NCBI GenBank assembly: GCA_021432655.1
Contig: MU271203.1
Location: 62,001 to 126,000 of the forward strand
Direction of reading: 5' to 3'
Source: Atractiella rhizophila
Taxonomy: Eukaryota
DNA length: 64,000 bases
Shown: positions 21,789 through 64,000 of the stretch, piece after piece
Numbering within the stretch: position 1 is the stretch's first letter
How the letters are laid out: each line of letters starts with the position of its first letter
The notes under the pieces: model-generated
The model's input: only the letters and a program-made list of their open reading frames with translations
What the model was told of the DNA's origin: nothing
Database searches by the model: none
Position numbers and translations under genes: made by a program

Positions 21789-22897
21789 TCACGTCCACAG
21801 CCCCTTCTCTACGTCTTTCCAATTGAACTCTCCCTGTATTTCGCCTAACTTAGCATCATCTCCTTCCCAACCCACCCAGTCCCATCGGAATCCAACTTTC
21901 TGATACACACGTCTGGCATTGCTGCTGGTCTCCACGATGAGACAAACCTCCTCCTTCTCTCGCACGCGCAACCAATATTCACAGGCATGCTGCACTGTCC
22001 TCTCAGCAATGCCTTGCCGTCTGTGGCTCGGGGATACAAAAACGTTCCGGATAGCGACTACTTTGGGGGATTCTCGCCCAGTAACAAGAAAGCTCGCGAC
22101 GAGCGGAGGGGATCCTGGCGGTGTAGGGAGGAGATAAAGAAAGTAGCCGTTGGTGTGACCTTGACCCAGGTACTCTGAGATCATGGCCTTTGCTCGGTCC
22201 CTCGATTTATCCTCTGGCGCGTCAAACATTTCTCTGGAAAAAGAGACGAAAAGGTTCTCCACGTTAGACTTGAAAGCAAGCCGCTCTGCATCGGGGAGCG
22301 AATGGAAGACAGATTCCAGAGTCTTGATTTCGTGACCGACCGGAAGATCGGCTGGGCTTGAAAATTGGCTGGAACGAAGAACACCTAAGTGAACTGGCAT
22401 GCGAGGTTTTGGATCCCGTTCTGGCGGCGCGACATCCGGGGCAAGCTCCCTCGCAAAATATACCAGTTGGTCCTGAAGGTAAGTAGCATAAGTGGCTGGC
22501 CCATAAAGTGATCCGATAGCCCGAATCGGTATGGAAAGCTCCTTGATGATATACCCGGCAAGTGTTTGGAGGGCTGCAGCTATGACAGAACTTGGAAAGG
22601 TAGAAGGGGAAGCAACTGCGAGAAATTTTGTGTAAAAGTTGCAGCCAACCCTGCCACGATGATCATTAGAAAGCGTCAGTTTTCAAGTACCGTAACGTAC
22701 ACGACTCGACCAGTCGTATCCCTTGCAATCAGGAGAAAGTATTCCCCTCCCTTCAGATCGTCAAGCCTCCGGGCAGCAATCCCATCGATTGTTCTCCCAA
22801 CGAGCATGTTGCATTTAGAATTGTCACAATCATTCTGCACGAGGAGATCTACGAATTCTTGGGGGGAATGCTGGGTAATAGCAATCTTGGTCGCCAT
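21789..22897 (-). CDS. GNAT-family acetyltransferase (paralog A)
   Basis: Acetyl-CoA motif A (IRNVFVSPSHRRQGIAE) and motif B (NARRVYQKVGF). One intron at about 22632-22699. Confidence 0.85.
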
Positions 22898-42004: not shown

Positions 42005-45000
42005 TTACATTTCTTGAGCAGCTCTCCATACAAACACTCCATCAACCATTTGTGCATCGGTATCCACAAGTTCTGCACCCTTAGATGGTCCAAACGTTGT
42101 CACAAGAAGCCCCTGTTCCTTGATACTCTCTATTAACGATGGGACTCGGATCTAGGCGGGTGTTCAGATACCGAACCTCATTGAAGGAAGCAAAATGCGA
42201 ACAATGATAGTCTCGTCTAAAACAACTCCAAGCAGATTGTTTGACTTCGCAAATTTGACTGCCTCCTTAATACTCGTACAGCGACGGTCTACTTCAAGCC
42301 GATTAGCAGGAAGCATTTCTCCTGGTGGACTGGAGCGTGACAATCCACAATGAGTAGCAAAAAAGACGGCATCTATATTTGCGATGCCATTAGTGGCGCT
42401 GGGAGAATGGAAGGGAAGAACGAACAGTTTGGCTGCTTCCAATTGAGGGTTGTGCAAATAAGAGGATTAAAGGACGAGAACATTATGTCTCTCGATTTCT
42501 TCTCCTCAGCCAGAGGGCGGTAAACCACATTGAGAACGGAATTAACAAACTCGTTGACGTCGAGGGTACTGCGTAATTTGAGTCGAGCGACATCCGATTT
42601 CGTGGGGTATCGAAACTCCAAATTCAACCTGAAGGAACTCGGAAGGACCTATCTCAACTATAAATGAGCGTTTCTAAGTACGAGCAGGAAGCGAGACCCA
42701 CGTCGATGAGAACCTGTAGAGGAACCAAAGACTCCTTGATAACTTTACACCACTCCCTGGCATCCGACTGATCTTTTACGAGCGCTGTTGAAAATTCACG
42801 GCCGGTATCCTTCGCAAGTCTAAGAAACTGCTCAAGGGTGAGATCAGCCACTTGGACAGTCGCAACGTCAATAGGAAGCTCCCATAACGGGAACGCAACT
42901 GGTACACCATCGGAAGTGACCTGTATGATGATTTGAATATATTCGCCATGCAGAGAGGAAGCTGTGACGACGGAGGCAGCATTGGAATGGGAAGGAGCAA
43001 GGGAGTGAGGAACATCGTCTCCCCTTCCTGTGCCGGAGGTCAAGGCTTTCGTGGACTTCCAGTATGTCTCTATCCGTCCACCAATCTCGAGTTGAGCTGC
43101 GAGGAACGGCCGGACTATTGAAAGCTCGAAGGCAATCTCCCCGATAACTTTGAGATGAGAGTCCACAAGGGGAATCACGAAGCCTTGCTGGCTGACCACC
43201 TGTTTGAACAAGCTCGGCAAGGCGACTCCTTTCCCGATGATCTTCGAACCAAAGGTCGGATAGACGTCGAACTCGAGGTAAACTTCTTCCAAAGAGTTGA
43301 CTTGGAAGTCGAAAACCTCCCTCTCATCTGCGAGAGGAATAATCACAGAATGCGGTATAGCAAGCGGATCAGGTCGAGGAGTGATGACGAGCTTGAGGGA
43401 GAAAATCTCGCTGCTGCGAGAGTAGAACCGCACCGGAGGAGCATGTGGAAGCCGAGTTGTATTTGGATGCCCAAGGGTGAGCTGTAATAAAGATTTGCGC
43501 TCAAGATAGTTATGACCGTAGATACGAAAAGGGATGATCGGCGGGGGAAGGAGGAGAGATGGGATGTTGTCCGGTTCCAAGTCCATCTGCTCAAACCCTT
43601 GAGAGCCCGTCGAAGCCGTGGCATCGCTAACTTGATGAGCGTCGGGAGGAGAAACTTCATTGAAGAAGTCTACCGAGCTTCTCTTCTCGGACGCTACTAC
43701 CGGCTGGGCGAGGAGCAGGAGGTTGAGAGAATCGATGTTAGACTGCCAAGCTGCATAGTGAATTGCAGTCTTGCGCATTTCGTCCAGAAGATTGAGGTTC
43801 GCTCCGGCTTGTATTAGGGTCCTAACGCAATCTGGTCTACCTTCGCTAGCGGCGTGAAAGACAGGAGTCCAGTTCTGATACTTGTCAGGAACATCGACAA
43901 TTTTGGACGCCCCTCGCTTCAGAATGAGAAGTTCCAATACTTTGACATGACCTTGACGAGCGGCGAGATGTTGAGGATACAAACCTTCTGGGTTAAGAGA
44001 GAGGGGAACGTCATTGTCGAGAAGCAGCTCGACAATATCTTCATGACCGTGCTGACACGCAAGGGAGAGGGGATTGAGGTCTGTGGGATCACGCGGAACG
44101 AAAAATACACCTTTTTCCAGAAGTTTGCGGATGCAAGAGGTCCTCCCGTTCGTGATAGCATAGATCATCGCGCTGTAGCCATCGAAATCCATGAGGTGAG
44201 GGTCCGCTCCTCGTTCAAGCAAAAGATCGAGAACGCTGTCGAATCCCTTCATCGCAGCATAGTGGACCGCCGTGCGTCCATACGCATCGGGAGCAGCAAT
44301 AGGCACGCGCTTAGTATCGGACAGGCAAAGTTCTGCGAGAGCTAGCCTGCCGGTATTGGCAGATAAGTGCAGAGTTGTGCGATTGTTAATATCGTCGACA
44401 AAAGCAAAATCGAGGAGTTCGATAGGGATGAGATGGACATTAGGGCGAAATTCGGTTGGTTCTTCCAACGCAGCTTTCCAAAGGATCCTTTGAACCTGAT
44501 TCTTCGATTCTGGAAGCTTCTCCGCAACTTCTGAAAGCTGACTCAAAACTTCCTTGATGAGACTGTGATCGTCTCCTCGGACAGCTTCTACCAGGGTCGT
44601 CTCAATATCCTCAAGCTCGTTGCCGCCTTCACGACCTTGATCATCAAAACAGACTGTGCTGATGATCATGTGCAACGGCCGAACGGCTCAAGGCCGGATC
44701 CTCGTCCATCAGAGCATCTTCTCCAGGTAAAGCCTGACCGTCTTCCGTATCACTCTTCTCTATCAGCCTCTCAAGGTCTGATATATTAGCAGCAGCGATA
44801 TCATTGAGCTTGGTCAACTCATCGCGATTAAACGCAGGCTGAACTTCGACTTGACGAGAGATGTACAGCTCCTTCGTCGTCGATTTGGAACGCTTATCGA
44901 ACTTCTTGAGTATTTTTCGAAATGCAGTGGCGTTGAGGTCGATATATTGCTACGAATGCGAATTGATTAGCTACTGCTTCCGCAAGCGAACCAGAAAAGC

Positions 45001-56071: not shown

Positions 56072-57162
56072 ATGAGCAATCTGATTGACAACTCGAAGTC
56101 CCAGATACGTCTCTCTGCGAAGCTATTTTCTGCTACAGAGTTTGCCGGCTTCCTGGTTGACAATGGGTATGATAACTCGAGATGCAACATGCTGGCAGGT
56201 AGGACGTTTGACAAAATCAATGACAACATTACAGGGGAGCTGAAGCCTGGAGACTTCTACATCGCTGTCAAAGATCACAATGATCGATTCATGTGAGTGA
56301 ACCTGCTTCCACAGTGGAAAATCAATTTTAACAGGCCTATAATAGCGTTGGGTCAAACTGTTACGACGGATTCATGTCAATTGCTTCTCACGTCGCCTTA
56401 CCCAAGGAAATGATGACTTCAGCTCTGCGATATCTTGCCTGCTATTTGATCGAAGAACTCTTGGTACCATATCAGTCCATACAGTCTATACACGGACCAG
56501 CTTCATATGTGGAGTATCTCCAAGGGCAACTTCTCTATTTTGCAAAAATTCGCGATATGAACGTTGTCCCACGGATACCAGATCCGGAGCCACTTCCGCC
56601 AGTTCATCTTGGAGTCCTCGCCACTGATGACGAGCTCTCGCGATCTGCTCATTGCCCAACCGAGCACAGGATCGAAACTCTGGAAGCTTACATCAGTTCC
56701 CTCCGGACTTCAGAAACTGCCGGCGTTATTTCCAAAGTCGAGCGTCTTCTTGCCGAGTTCTACAGTGACAGACCTGAAATCTCAGCTTCGGCAGCGCAAA
56801 AGGCTAGAGACGTTGTTTCTACTTACATCGAAGGGAATCAACAGAATAGTTTTTTCCTCTGCCTTCTTTCAAGTTCACTGGACACTGCGCCGCACGTAGC
56901 GGGCATTTTGGTGATGGGACGAGAGACTCGCAGGACTATTGCAATTCGTCACGTTTTTGTCTCACCTCAGCATCGCCGACAGGGTATCGCAGAACACCTT
57001 GTGCGACACGCATGCGCTCACTGGCTCCAGATTTCAAAGAAAGAGGAAGTTTGCCTCCTCGTCGAAGTCGGTAGTGATGCTAGACGAGTGTATCAGAAAG
57101 TAGGATTCAGGTGGGACTGGGTCGGATGGGAAGGTGATGATCCAGAGAAGGGTAATGTTTGA
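56072..57162 (+). CDS. GNAT-family acetyltransferase (paralog B)
   Basis: Motifs IRHVFVSPQHRRQGIAE and ARRVYQKVGF. Intron at about 56293-56345. A further short 3' exon is possible. Confidence 0.85.
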
Positions 57163-57243: not shown

Positions 57244-58843
57244 TCAACAAGCAGCTGTGTTATTTTGAGCCATTAGCCGTCTTTCTTCCCGCACTTCCAG
57301 TATTACTTCTTTGAGTCTCCTGAACCCTTCATCCGCCTTCTCCTTGCTCGCGAGAGAGAAGCTCACTCGAGCGTAAGAGCTCTTTGCACCTGAGGGCATG
57401 AAAGTCTGCTCGATTCACCATCAGCAAGTCACCTCCTCAGCAAGTAAATGCCTACCGTGCCTGGGGTGACCAAAATTCCTTTTTCAATAGCCTTGGAAGA
57501 AAGTGCGTGGTAAGTATCGACGTCACTCTCGCCTGAATCTGAAAGGTCGAGTCGAAGATACAAGAACATGCCAGCAGTCGGAGTGACCTTCATCTCCTCG
57601 TGAGGATATGTGCAGAGGACAAATGGATCGACATACCCAGGTCGCAAGTCCCTCGAGATGCTCCTTAGCTGCCGCCTCAAACATGTCTCTCTGACTTTTG
57701 TAGAATGCCGCCACTTCTGCACAATGCGCTTTCAGCCCGGAGATTCCCCATGCTTTGAACAGTTTTAATACCAAAGCCTGAGTTGTTGACGAGGATTGGA
57801 GCTGAGTGTTAGCGGTATGCTTATCAACGATGTCAAGAATCGCCGGAGGACCCGTAAGGAAGCCGACTCGCAAACCTATTATATATTGTGTCAGCCCGGA
57901 GATGAATATGGAAAGCGATCGAAGGAGAGAGTACCGGCGCTGAGGATTTTGGACATTGAATCCAAACGCAAGACTCGCGATCGACCCTCTCCCTCGTCCA
58001 ACTCAAAGAAACTTGCTGGACGTTCTCCTTCTCCATAATATACGAAGCCGTAAGCTTCATCTTCGACTAGTAAAAGATTCCACCGCCTAACAATCTCCAT
58101 GATACGCTTCTTCCGAGCCGTGCCAGTGCAGTATCCCGAAGGGTTCTGACCTGAAGGTTGGACGTAGAGGACCTTTGGAAAAGGAAGGGAAGGGCGGAGA
58201 GTCTTCCAATTTGAAAGAAGAGTTTCAAGGGTATCGGGCACGATGCCTTCATGGTCGGTTTTTAATTCGATGGGGACGCAATCCGTCTGCGTTAATGAGC
58301 TCAATACTCCCCTGCACCACATCAAGATTTGGACAGACCTGACGAAGGTGACGGAACATACGGATAAACTGGTGTTTCCAGTAGCACAGGCTCTCCAGGG
58401 TTGATGAGAGCGGCAAATACTTTGGTCAGGAGGTCGAGAGATCCAGCACCGGCGGAAACGCGCCAACCGTCTCCTCGTCTCCGGTTATGCTCGACCGCCT
58501 CGAAGGTTTCCCACCATTCGGTCAGCTCTGGCAGAGTTGCGTTGCGAGCGTTAAGATATTGTAAGGCGTCGTAGAGCTCCTGTCCTTCGAGCGTGCACAC
58601 TTCGTCGCTGTCGGCTAGCCCAAACGAGATGAAACGGAATGGGAAAGATACTGGGTTTGGCTGTTCCAATAAAACTTTAGCTTCAAATCGGTACGATAGA
58701 GCTATGCATACTTTTCCAGTGAGAAAGGATATCATTCCTGGTTGTTCTTCGAGAGGGAGCAAGTGTCGAATAGGAGCAGGAGTCCATTTTCTACCCGATT
58801 TCGAAATAAAAGAATCATAATCGACAGCGCCAGAGTAACCCAT
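57244..58843 (-). CDS. PLP-dependent class I aminotransferase (aromatic/2-aminoadipate, Aro8/Aro9/AADAT-like)
   Basis: Motifs MISFLTG.PN, ALQY, GQNPSG and EDEAY; PLP lysine motif DSMSKILSAG|LRVG; AGMFLY and RVSFS. Confidence 0.92.
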
Positions 58844-60086
58844 TTTGAAAAGCAGAGAGGCGGAAGGAATAGCGTAGGAGGAAAGTGAACGATTCAGGGA
58901 TCGCTTTATAATACCCTCTGGAGAAAGAGTCTCGGGGAGATTAGAACAGACTGCTCGGGGAGATTGGCTGGCTTCAATCGGAGCACGGCACGAAAGCAGA
59001 TATCGCAGCGGGGAGATAACTCATTTCTCCCGCGACGGTCGTGGGCGCTCAGGGAAGGATATCAAAGGTTGTGCTACTCAGATGCGTGGGCCGGAGTGCT
59101 ACAACGACTCGGCGGCTCCCCCCACTATAGGAAAGAAAGATGGTGTTTAGATTGTATGCGAAATCTGATTCTTTAGTCGTACTTGGTCTTGTCACCTCGA
59201 CGCAGAATGGGGATCATGCTTGGTATTATTACGAGAGCTCCTCCAGAAGGAATACGCCAGGAATCCCAAGAGAACCTTGTGAAGTGTCAACCTATCACGG
59301 ACAACGGGAACGAAAGAATTAATTGGACGCCAACTTATGTCCGCATAAACTATGCTTTCAGGAAGGTATTTGAAGGCTGAAAAGTCATCTTAGCTTCTAC
59401 TGGCTAGGAGTTTAGTAGGAAAGTAAGCAACAATCTGACTTGACGAATCCGGGCAGGAAAACAACACGCGAAGAGCAGAGCCTGAAGCAAGGAATAGCTC
59501 AACGTTCAAGCTGTTAACAGGCAAAATATAAGAACGATGGGCACGACACACCTTCCCCCAAAGCAAAAGAAGGCAGTTTCAATAGCTGAGCAGGTCTGAG
59601 CAACTCATATCCCTGCATCATGTCGCCTATACTCCTCTATTGCGAGCGGCGGCTTCAGCCCTTATGCGCACCTATTTTACTTCTCTCTGTGCTCCTCGTC
59701 ATGTTCGTCAACAAAGGTTCGAGGTCAAATCCTGATCAAAATGGCGAAATTGGCAGAAAACGCCAAGACAAAGGGAGAAAACAACTCCGCTTCGGTCGCG
59801 GCCAGCGTCCGACCACAACACTCGCTTCACGCCAGCCAAGCAAGTAATTAGCAGGCAGGACGACCAAATCAGCTCTTCTGCCTCAGCATCTCCCCATCTC
59901 CCTTCTCTGGTCCACCTTTCTCTTCCATTACTTCGGCAGGTCCAAAGTGATTTTTTCATTCACAGCCTCCAGCTCCACAGGTGACTGTTTTCCAGATCAC
60001 ACCCCGCTGTGTCAGCTCCATATATTCCAAGACTGACCCTTCCACAGATATCACGACTTTCTCGTTCGCAGCTTAGCAAAACGCGT

Positions 60087-63000
60087 ATGCAATCCCTTCA
60101 TCAGAAAAGTTGGACGAATTCCAATAACAAGAGACCCATCAAAGCGCACGACGATTCCAGCTCTGGATTTGATAACCAAAAGGAAGGATCACCAAGCAAG
60201 AAGTTGAAGGCTTCCAACCAAGAATTGCTCGAAAACGACCAAAGTGTGAGTGTTTCACCGATCCTCACAAAGAAAGGTGGCGTGCGTGCGGTCTTTGTGT
60301 TGGCTGCGGCAGTGTGATGCCTGGATGATCGAGGTCTCCGCGTCAACTGACTTGTTCTCCTCTTCATAAGCGAACAGCCTTGAGTAACGCAAGTACTGAC
60401 TGGTGGGCATGATAGTTGACCTCGCCTCAAGATATCACGATGACCTCCCTCGTTCTCCCTCCTCCTCAAAAACGGCGCGGCCCACCGTCCCTCAATCTCT
60501 CCTCAGTCTCCGCTCCACAGACCCCAAAACCTCTTGTGCTGCAGTCTCAGAAATCGTCTACCATGGTTCCTTACAACCCGGACGAAAACGAATCGTCACT
60601 CAGCGACTTCTCCGACAAGAGTCCGAACGAGATCTCCTTTGTCAGCGCTCCAACCAGCCCGGACGTGAACTCGACCACATTTTCTTCCACCTCATCCAAC
60701 ACTTCCTCTGCGCCAATCCCTCAACTGACGGTCCCGACATTGCAATTGCCTTCCTCCGCCTCTGCATCCACTTCTGACTCTACAGACGCCGCTCCTCCCG
60801 CACTCAAATTACAAGCTCCCTCACTTGCCGCTCGCCGAAAGGGAAAAATACCTCTTCCGCTTCCTCTTGATCGCATAGGGGAAGAGTCACCGGTGTACGA
60901 GAATTCTGAGCGACCTTCGATCCCTATCCCCAAACCTGACATTCCACCAGCTCCACTTTCCGCCAATCCTCTCAATTACGGAAGGCCGAAAATGAAGAAG
61001 AACCTCAATAAGAAAATGCTTTCTCTTACCGTCAACCCTGCCCTCGCCGAAACCCAATCCTGTCCCCCATCACCTGGCATCTTTGCCCTGCTTCCGGATG
61101 AGGGAGACGAGGAGGATGGGGCGGGGAAGGACGAGTTTAAAGCTAAGATGATGTTGAAGGTGAAGGCGGAAGAGATGCGAGATCGACTTTCAGGTAAGAA
61201 TGGAGGAATGGGAAGGAGGAAATCCATACCTGGTGGAATGAGTTTAGCAACTCATGTTGCTGGGACCGCGCCAATTGACGATCAAGAGGAGGAAGATGAG
61301 GAATTCCCGTATCAACATGGACCGAAGGAGATCTTGAAAGGCCTCTACCTTGGAAGTGAGGGGAATGCGAAAGATGGAGAGATGCTGAGAAGAGAGGGGA
61401 TCAAGTGGATCCTCAATGTTGCGGTGGAAGTGGTTGTGCCCTGGGAGGATGGGAACGTGGTTGATGGGATCGAAGGCTGGAACAAGCTGGATGAACAGGT
61501 ACCCCGTCTAGCAATCGAGAAAGTGGACGGAGACCGCACCCCTCTCAGCTCAGCTCAGCCAACCTTCAAGCTCGCCTTGGACGACCGGCCCCCTATGAGC
61601 TCCATCGAACCCTCGTTTGGAGGACTGCCCTTTGGTCGAGACGACGACGACCGACCACCCATGAGCTCGATCGAGCCGTCGTTCGGTGGACTTCCCTTCA
61701 CGCGAGAAGCAGATGAACCTGCCCCTCTGAAGAGCTTCCTTCTGCCTTCTTTGGGTGGATTATCATCTGCAGATGAAGACGACGATCGACCACCAATGAG
61801 TTCTATTGAACCCACCTTCGCTGGTCTACCATTTGGAAGGGATGAAGATCGTGGACCGAAGAGTTCGTTGGCCCCGTCGTTTGGCGGCCTGCCTTTCAAG
61901 AGAGACGATGATGACGATGATCGTCCCCCGATGAGTTCGATCGAGCCCACATTCGGAGGATTGCCTTTTGGAAGAGATGAAGACAGAGGACCGAAGAGCT
62001 CGCTTGCTCCCTCTTTCGGGGCTTTGCCGTTCAGGAGAGACGACGATGATCACCCTCCGATGAGTTCCATCGAACCCACTTTTGGAGGATTGCCTTTCGG
62101 AAGAGATGAAGATAGAGGACCAAAGAGCTCGCTCGCTCCTTCCTTCGGGGCGCTTCCATTCAGGAGAGAAGAAGACGACGACAAGCCACCCATGAGTTCG
62201 ATCGAACCTTCCTTCGGTGGACTACCATTTAAGAGAGATGAACCTGCGCCGATGAGCTCGATCGAGCCCAGCTTCGGTGCATTACCCTTCAAACGGGATG
62301 ACGAGGACGGGACTGCCCCCATGAGTGCCGTCGAGTCGACATTCTTTTCCCTGCCCGTCAACAATCGTCCCTCCATTCCACGATCGGAAAGGGCGCCGGA
62401 GCCTATCATGGAAGAACCGATGGAGTATACCATCTCGATTTCCCCTCCGCAGGAGCCCGCCGCTTCTCCCCAAGTTTCTCCCAATAGATCGAAGTCAATG
62501 TTGATGCGTACTGCCACGTCAACTCCAAATCTGAAAGCTTCATTTGAGGAGGAGGAAGATGCGCCTTCTCCTTCGAGGACTAGGAAGTTTACTCTTCCTC
62601 TTCCTATCGTAGATAATGGACCAAAGGTACTCGACTTGAGATTCGAAGAGATGGGGAGTCGCCCGGCCGTCAATTACCGAAAACTGTTCTGGGGACATGA
62701 TCAGAAAGATGTTGTTGACCAGTTTGAGAAGGCTTTCGAGTTTATTGAAGCTGCACGCAGCAGGGGCGAAGGAGTTTTGGTGCATTGCCAATGCGGTATC
62801 TCAAGGTTTGTTGTTGCTTCCTTAATAGATGGCGCCGAACGTTGATTCTGAATACAGGAGCGGATGCGCTGTCATTCTCTATGTGATGAAGAAGGCATCA
62901 GAAGGTCGGATCAAAAAGATGGGATCAGAATGGGAGGGCGGAGAACTGGTTGAAGTGACGACGGAGTGGAGCTCTGCCTATGACTTTGCCAGAAAGAAGA

Positions 63001-64000
63001 GTCGACATGTTGGACCAAACATGAATCTCATTTGGCATTGTCTGGATTACGGAAAGACGCTCAAGAGGCTGGAAAGTGGCAAGGGAGAGGATTCGAACAC
63101 GGATGACGAAGAGGAAGAACGACAGATAATGCAACAACGCAGGAAGCAGGAAGAACCTGATGAAGCCGCGTCCTCCGTCTCATCCAAGAACTCCTTCTCG
63201 ACCAGACTTTATGCTGGTTCCAATCAACTTCCCGATAACGAGTCCATGTTCTCTCAGGTTTCGACACCAGTTTCGATGAAACCTCCAGTTGTTATTGCAC
63301 CCATCCAGCCGAAAGCGAAACGAGCACCGCCGCCGCTGAAACTCAAAAAGGAGACGACGACAACGGTCCTTGCAGTCGGAGATGTTGACGACAAGGAAAG
63401 CGTCACCAGTCATGCCTCGTCGAAGTTAGACACGAAACACCAGTTATCGCCTCTTCCTCCTCACGTCGCTCCACCAATCCCCACCCCCTTCACCGCTCAT
63501 CCTGCGAAGACGACTTTTACAAGGCCTATGGCTCCGACGCCTCATACCGCGAGTGCTTTCAAAACCAGCTTCGGCAGCAAGAGCCAAGCTGCCTCTTCGT
63601 CCTTTAGCAAGATCTTTCCATCGTCTGCCTCGATCAAATCTGCTTCTTCTAAAGGTTCCAAGACATCTAAACTGTCCCGTCTGCGGTCGTCTAAGTTTGC
63701 CCTGCCTTTCCCTCTGCCCCCTTCTGTCACTACTCAGGTGGGTGTTCGCCTCTAGACACCGTCTCCGTTTCAAGTGCTGATCTTACTTGATGGTTAGGTG
63801 GATACCCCAACTGCGTCTGCATTCAAGCCTTCGCCAGCTTTGAATGCTCTTAATAACACAGCGCAAGCTACCGGAACATACACGAGAAAGCGAGGTGCTT
63901 CTCTTCTGGTATCAACCACTGCGAACATTGCGAGCGCGATTGCGAGCCCTCAGACCCCTGGACCGCCTCCCGCTACTCCCCATGGTAGGAGTAAGTCATT
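60087..64000 (+). CDS. Dual-specificity MAPK phosphatase, Msg5/Pmp1-like (3' partial)
   Basis: Motifs YQHGPKEILKGLYLGSE, WILNVA.E, Y.KL.W.H, VLVHCQCGISR|S and AYDFARKKS..VGPNM.LI. D-motif-like segments RRGPPSLNL and KKMLSLTV. Exon 60087-60245 splices in frame to 60416. Confidence 0.9.
61535..62359 (+). repeat. Coding tandem repeat of about 13 units, each about 20-24 aa
   Basis: Units RPPMSSIEP(S/T)FGGLPF(G/K)R+D/E and RGPKSSLAPSFG(G/A)LPF(K/R)R+D/E; 10 well conserved and 3 degenerate. Confidence 0.95.

Follow-up and report, generated by a model that had tools for sequence, protein, structure and literature searches.

What does a long array of peptide repeats do inside the catalytic domain of a MAPK phosphatase, and where did it come from? 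These questions are raised by a locus of Atractiella rhizophila in a 64,000-nucleotide stretch of contig MU271203.1 (the window, whose positions are used throughout). Spliced contigs and open reading frames defined a forward-strand gene whose model, starting at 60440, encodes a protein of 1176 aa. The first coding exon (60440-62805), an open reading frame with splice joints in all four runs, holds the N-terminal region, the first half of the DSP domain, the loop with the array, and the second half up to the catalytic motif; the array itself lies within an 809-codon open frame. The second coding exon (62858-63737), placed by splice joints, completes the motif HCQCGISRS and the DSP domain and continues into a disordered tail, and the third (63798-64000), placed by spliced contigs, runs past the window end to a stop near 64083 that was read in locus L021. 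GT..AG introns at about 60246-60415, 62806-62857 and 63738-63797 were skipped by contigs from all four sequencing runs examined, runs with small shares being set aside, so that all four represent spliced RNA, including X3, which is labelled 'DNA?'. The intron at 60246-60415 lies in the 5' leader and was located from joints and loose ends of spliced contigs; two more leader introns were found upstream, at about 59981-60047 and 60085-60144. The spliced leader contains no ATG. Across the leader region (59950-60439), with its three introns, about 60 codons in frame with the gene are open after a stop, and a longer protein made from a non-AUG start is possible.

The catalytic motif HCQCGISRS is formed across the first coding intron, which is supported by RNA, and is intact. 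The domain carries the HCXXGXXR signature and scored 41.4 bits against Pfam DSPc (cut-off 33.5). Its first half, from GPKEIL to WILNVAVEV, occupies 61319-61432, and its second half up to the intron, with W-G-H and HCQCGISR, occupies 62675-62805. WILNVAVEV (61406) and YRKLFWGH (62675) are in one open frame with 414 aa between them, and since the two halves align with DUSP10 residues 7-40 and 50-95, these 414 aa stand in place of a loop of about 9 aa. The second Cys two residues past the catalytic Cys (HCQCG) is given as a feature of fungal MAPK phosphatases in the available sections of PMC6479966. A match to the D-motif consensus of those sections, KRRGPPSLNL near the N-terminus (residues 11-20, 60470-60499), and a second putative N-terminal match at residues 186-198 were found with a loose regular expression that yields 32 overlapping matches in the whole protein. 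The HCXXGXXR signature, the extra Cys, the N-terminal D-motif matches and a W-x-H replacing the usual acid loop are shared with the Msg5/Sdp1/Rok1 group as outlined there. The nearest ortholog found was P0104 of Rhodosporidiobolus azoricus (BLAST E values of 3e-21 and 1e-16 for the two domain halves), which the gene joined in a 27-row tree with support of 94/85, on a long branch (2.31) and at a node that was not starred, a placement pointing to Pucciniomycotina. By these sequence features, the gene belongs to the basidiomycete Msg5/Rok1-type MAPK phosphatases and is intact. A Pfam match to the RDM3 beta-solenoid was dropped at 21.8 bits (cut-off 35). AlphaFold2 models of exon 1, with pLDDT of 39 alone and 44 with nine alignment rows, are too weak to show whether the domain closes, and a Foldseek search gave no match at E<=0.001.

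The array is part of the mature message. Record 4 of X3 covers 61637-62803 without gaps and continues across the spliced intron, record 3 of X3 covers 61349-61641, and record 20 of X9 covers 61928-62298 without gaps. The possibility that the array is spliced out was thus rejected: contigs read through it with spliced introns alongside, and no canonical donor was found among the patterns tried. These contigs bear on exon structure, not on expression level. No single contig covers the whole array, and because the two X3 records overlap by only 5 bases (61637-61641), the true number of copies between units 2 and 3 may differ from that given below. A 3-base in-frame insertion at 62605-62606 was observed in three of the four sequencing runs examined.

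A preliminary description of this DNA had counted about 13 repeats between WILNVAVEV and YRKLFWGH, and we found exactly 13 units, which fill 275 of the 414 loop residues (residues 366-640) and comprise seven units of type A (PMSSIEP), three of type B (PKSSLAP) and three degenerate ones. Unit starts range from 61538 to 62315 with a spacing of 17-24 aa; the spacers vary between 3 and 7 aa, and core length is constant in the ten A and B units. The array opens with a degenerate unit (unit 1, 61538-61588), followed by two type A units with acidic spacer (units 2 and 3, 61589-61705) and another degenerate unit (unit 4, 61724-61774). Units 5-10 form three A-B blocks at 61790-62167, the threefold alternation described earlier. 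They are followed by units 11 and 12 (62186-62296), type A units with KR ends that are the sole two fitting a reverse D-motif consensus, and by the degenerate unit 13 (62315-62365), the best match to a profile of the agaricomycete tail motif. The earlier statement that units end in KR, RR or GR and are joined by acidic spacers stands for the spacers; a dibasic end is present in only 5 of the 13 units. The array is net acidic (52 D/E, 29 K/R), and the low-confidence AlphaFold2 model (nine rows, pLDDT 44) assigned it no secondary structure.

The units have diverged at the DNA level and have been held together at the peptide level. As had been noted, codons vary while residues are kept: the five quoted PPM codon strings are all present, and pS is 0.7-0.8 against a pN of 0.06-0.08. 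In pooled A-A pairs, pS was 0.82 (saturated) and pN 0.084, with 201 of the 287 base differences at third positions; in B-B pairs the values were 0.69 and 0.062, with an omega of about 0.03. Residue conservation to this degree was reached in none of 2000 neutral simulations (2.1 differences per 17 aa observed, simulated mean 8.4), which bears out the earlier proposal of peptide-level selection rather than recent slippage. Slippage as a recent origin was rejected, synonymous sites being near saturation and third positions at four-fold sites agreeing in 96 of 304 cases, where chance alone would give 25%. Serine codon use is shared, with AGY for the first serine in all 13 units and TCN for the second in all 11 units having one, and points to common descent of the units. 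The youngest pair consists of the last two A-B blocks, with units 7-8 duplicated into 9-10, at 86% DNA identity and a pS of 0.50. Strain differences tell the same story: among the 40 listed of 122, seven of the nine in the array are synonymous (p=0.003), as are all six within units 2-12, and both non-synonymous ones fall at the degenerate unit 13 or its spacer. The array is therefore old, and selection acts on its peptide while codons are not kept; constraint among units is position-specific, with an omega of about 0.03-0.1. The search for close relatives found none that carry the array, so that synonymous saturation is the sole guide to its age and range.

To place the array in its family, we compared the loop among 93 basidiomycete-type proteins, setting aside the Mortierellaceae protein P0001. 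The loop could be measured in 88 of the 93 (five lacked the anchors); it spans 36-366 aa and is little conserved, with lengths of 42-49 aa for agaricomycetes, 36-88 aa in Dacryopinax, Tulasnella and Phaffia, 173-366 aa in the Ustilaginomycotina-type set and 216 aa in P0104. The family thus tolerates insertions here, as had been stated, and a long loop at the same site is common to basidiomycete Msg5/Rok1-type orthologs. Copy number across orthologs, a comparison proposed at the outset, gave repeats in this protein and in none of the 88 measured ortholog loops, which contain at most one repeated 5-mer against 120 in the array loop. A long loop at this site is ordinary in the family; repeats there are not. 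What the loops do share is a short motif, here RTATSTPNL (RxxxSTPNL) at 62507-62533 after the array, with an S[TA]P[ND][LFI] match in 89 of the 93 orthologs. We take this motif to resemble a 14-3-3 site, and R-x-x-x-S-T-P-N-L may represent the ancestral function of the loop. Upstream of STPNL, 43 of the 54 anchored Ustilaginomycotina-type loops (P0002, P0029-P0086) carry an aromatic-T-P motif, mostly [FY][FY]TP, a candidate conserved MAPK site. One member, P0036, is labelled as a protein of the fern Adiantum, yet it groups with Meira at 99/98 and is probably a fungal sequence in a plant assembly.

Searches for relatives of the array itself returned little. A phmmer search of 1.84 billion representatives gave 11 weak matches (best 7.5e-12), all 11 without the phosphatase motif, and the six inspected were unrelated repeat proteins. 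A word search with residues 280-789 gave two matches among 8000 scored, and a metagenome scan with the array gave none among 320 candidates; two loci from a scan with the domain piece were set aside as unrelated phosphatases. In the ESM Atlas the array scored at best 0.79 and exon 1 at best 0.85, values that are leads only. Within the genome, all nine matches to [ST]FG[GA]LPF fall in the array, and besides the array itself a search found only chance matches, on a TPR-repeat gene of contig C365. That gene (L002-L004, G000:C365) has near-identical repeats and frame breaks. Two further loci of this genome occur as near-identical pairs on different contigs, a Pps1-like phosphatase (L005/L017 on C495 and L006/L014 on C126, the C495 copy seeming to differ in frame) and a TEY-type MAPK (L025 on C62 and L027 on C587); these pairs are duplications or split haplotypes. 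Elsewhere in the window lie two similar GNAT acetyltransferase genes (56332-57159, forward; 21792-22682, reverse), an aminotransferase class I/II-like gene (about 57400-59020, reverse) and a gene with ankyrin and GDE1-like C2 domains (42657-44687, reverse). No fungal MAPK phosphatase with a repeat array came up in a literature search that covered few subscription papers, and the words 'insertion' and 'repeat' do not occur in the available text of PMC6479966, a review of these enzymes.

Where the unit came from can nevertheless be traced to some extent. Some orthologs carry, in loop or tail, one to four copies of a short family motif consisting of an acidic run followed by P-P-x-S-[SA]-I-x-x-[STA]-F, and the array unit probably descends from it. 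P0104 has one copy with an acidic lead-in in its tail (DDDLPPPSAIEGAF). Scored with an array profile that included the spacer, this tail ranked top of the 93 orthologs at 20.4 bits, a value reached in none of 2000 local shuffles (p=0.0005, partly post hoc, as the spacer was added to the profile after the P0104 alignment had been seen). With a shorter, 10-aa array profile P0104 gave p=0.04, and p<=0.05 was obtained for 13 of the 93 orthologs, a count that is not independent as the orthologs are related. In the reverse direction, a profile of the agaricomycete tail motif, anchored on [ST]F and built from the 12 of 29 proteins that have both anchors (the first was missing in 15 and the second in two), placed seven array units ahead of everything else in the 1176-aa protein (p=0.006). 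Three Meira-like orthologs carry PPMS[AS]IRE in this loop, upstream of STPNL. Other comparisons speak against the link: a profile built from the loops of 43 Ustilaginomycotina proteins was not significant on the array protein (p=0.15) and matched best in the tail, and in the agaricomycete copies [ST]F is preceded by a basic residue, in contrast to E-P in the array, and GG is absent.

Related motifs in the tail of the Atractiella protein had been proposed as well, and the region of PHTASAFKTSFG (63537-63575) agrees with this: it is a relative of the P-x-S-A...K-T-S-F motif found in the tails of agaricomycete and Tulasnella orthologs and was the top match of the profile of that motif (p=0.028, 500 shuffles). 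Two to four tandem copies of a related tail motif were observed in Amylostereum and Tulasnella orthologs (P0028, P0088, P0089), so small expansions recur in the family. In this lineage one unit of 21-23 aa was multiplied in the loop long ago, by single and two-unit (A-B) duplications, and the best reading is that this was a lineage-specific amplification of a family linear motif. The KNL1 MELT arrays, as the available part of PMC4558858 describes them, likewise grew by lineage-specific duplication of single units and blocks in a presumably disordered region; the two have no sequence relation, and unlike the array, which sits in a catalytic domain, KNL1 is a scaffold whose kinase and reader are known.

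A fixed core, variable spacers, strong constraint and disorder in a weak model are what arrays of linear binding motifs look like, and we lean, with slightly better than even confidence, towards the array being a multivalent binding module of linear motifs that is probably disordered. The fixed hydrophobic residues of each unit (M/I/F/L/F) would fit a small pocket of a partner, the ten near-intact copies would provide avidity or hold several partners beside the active site, and binding may be tuned at the fixed serines (S-x-x-E, CK2-type). The putative partner would most likely act in the MAPK pathway or regulate it. The specific modules suggested in the preliminary description, classical MAPK docking and multisite MAPK phosphorylation, are not supported. 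The classical D-motif (a basic cluster, then hydrophobic-x-hydrophobic) has no match in residues 366-640, and IY[TS] has none in the whole protein; the IYT docking motif consists of an invariant Ile-Tyr followed by Thr/Ser in the accessible portion of PMC3898958. A single S/T-P site lies in the array and 19 lie elsewhere in the protein. With these counts, neither known fungal MAPK phosphatase docking nor MAPK feedback phosphorylation fits. The acidic charge is also a poor fit to the acidic CD groove of MAPKs.

Binding to the MAPK docking groove in reverse orientation was considered as well and is a rather unlikely candidate. Among several motif ideas tried, the reverse D-motif O-X-O-X2-O-X4-6-O-X2-(R/K)(R/K) fits 2 of the 13 units, and shuffled units fit it at 0.3-3% per unit. 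Compared with the reverse D-motifs of RSK1, MK2 and MNK1 in the available parts of PMC4705221 and PMC4670726, units 11 and 12 fit if Pro counts as hydrophobic, and the hydrophobic-x6-Leu-x2-x-Arg spacing is kept in all ten A and B units; however, in 11 of the 13 units either the initial hydrophobic pair or the dibasic end is absent, and the acidic flanks are unfavourable. A complex prediction for units 11-12 with a TEY-type MAPK of this genome in three separate pieces scored 0.00 and speaks neither for nor against binding. According to the portion of PMC6479966 available, IYT is restricted to yeasts and further motifs have been suggested. It is conceivable, though we think it unlikely, that basidiomycete MAPK phosphatases possess a docking motif not described before, the counterpart of IYT, and that the unit is this motif, present 13-fold in one lineage and in part with a basic end that makes it reverse-D-like. 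If so, the enzyme would also serve as a multivalent sink or scaffold, keeping several kinase molecules beside its active site.

Other functions would account for parts of the same data. The array could be a multisite phosphorylation or degron timer, in which acidophilic kinases of CK2 or CK1 type load the fixed serines and so set the stability or activity of the phosphatase, instead of serving to bind a partner from the pathway. Ten S-x-x-D/E (CK2-type) sites, the acidic spacers and a first serine kept in 13 of 13 units suit such a timer, as does the regulation of Msg5 by phosphorylation and ubiquitin-mediated degradation reported in the available sections of PMC6479966. It is nevertheless improbable, as it leaves the conserved F-G-[GA]-L-P-F half of the unit unexplained and, with one S/T-P site, would not take its input from MAPK feedback. 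That very half recalls FG nucleoporins: the array holds 13 of the 14 FG dipeptides of the whole protein, PSFG is a named FG-repeat subtype in the accessible part of PMC4756821, and one weak array match is a Nup159 protein (P0008, E 3e-5). An FG-like tract might bind nuclear transport receptors or drive condensation and thereby place the phosphatase with its bound MAPK, whose localisation is influenced by MAPK phosphatases according to the available part of PMC6479966. Yet nearly all core positions are fixed in the array, and the related ortholog motif is mostly without FG. The spacers of FG nucleoporins usually vary freely, and acidic spacers are atypical for them, which makes this reading quite improbable.

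The array might instead be a tolerated spacer whose residues are kept only by disorder, solubility or resistance to proteolysis, or a relic of a lost role. The variable, little conserved ortholog loops (36-366 aa, none with the array) would agree with this, as would the decaying end units and the location of both non-synonymous strain differences at unit 13 or its spacer; the position-specific omega of about 0.03-0.1 and the six of six synonymous differences in units 2-12 are hard to reconcile with mere tolerance, and we hold it to be quite improbable too. Least credible, at a very low probability, is the alternative raised at the outset, peptide release from a segment of Kex2-processed or RiPP precursor type, along with the variant that the array was captured from a precursor gene of this kind. 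Repeated cores, some KR/RR ends and acidic spacers are shared with the Kex2-processed repeat proteins (KEPs) treated in the available text of PMC7329392, KR or RR precedes the acidic spacer in 5 of the 13 units, and a weak match (E 5.5e-4) was found to the secreted-looking Peniophora repeat protein P0013 with its FKRD junctions. In that text, however, KEPs are defined as proteins with an ER signal peptide that Kex2 cleaves in the Golgi, whereas the array sits in a cytosolic-type enzyme: a hydropathy scan found no signal peptide or hydrophobic N-terminus (best 9-residue mean 0.82), and the spliced leader has an in-frame stop and no ATG. Cleavage would split the catalytic domain in two, the units contain no tyrosine, and with [ST]FG[GA]LPF confined to the array no donor gene was found. 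A genome search for DUF3328/UstYa gave no match, and its control likewise matched nowhere.

The array was seen in one lineage only. Compared with the Msg5/Sdp1/Rok1 group of PMC6479966, as far as its available sections describe it, the Atractiella protein differs in its 414-aa loop, its 13 conserved repeats and the lack of an IYT motif. The family and motif amplification are already known; what appears new is that the unit resembles a motif present at low copy number in orthologs. Partner recognition by basidiomycete MAPK phosphatases has been little studied, and an array held at an omega near 0.03-0.1 highlights one short motif and its key residues, and offers a natural high-avidity bait for its partner. 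For the family as a whole, a long loop bearing a conserved motif interrupts, throughout basidiomycetes, a domain that has been considered compact, and this may explain the description of the Rok1 domain as notably short in the available part of PMC6479966.
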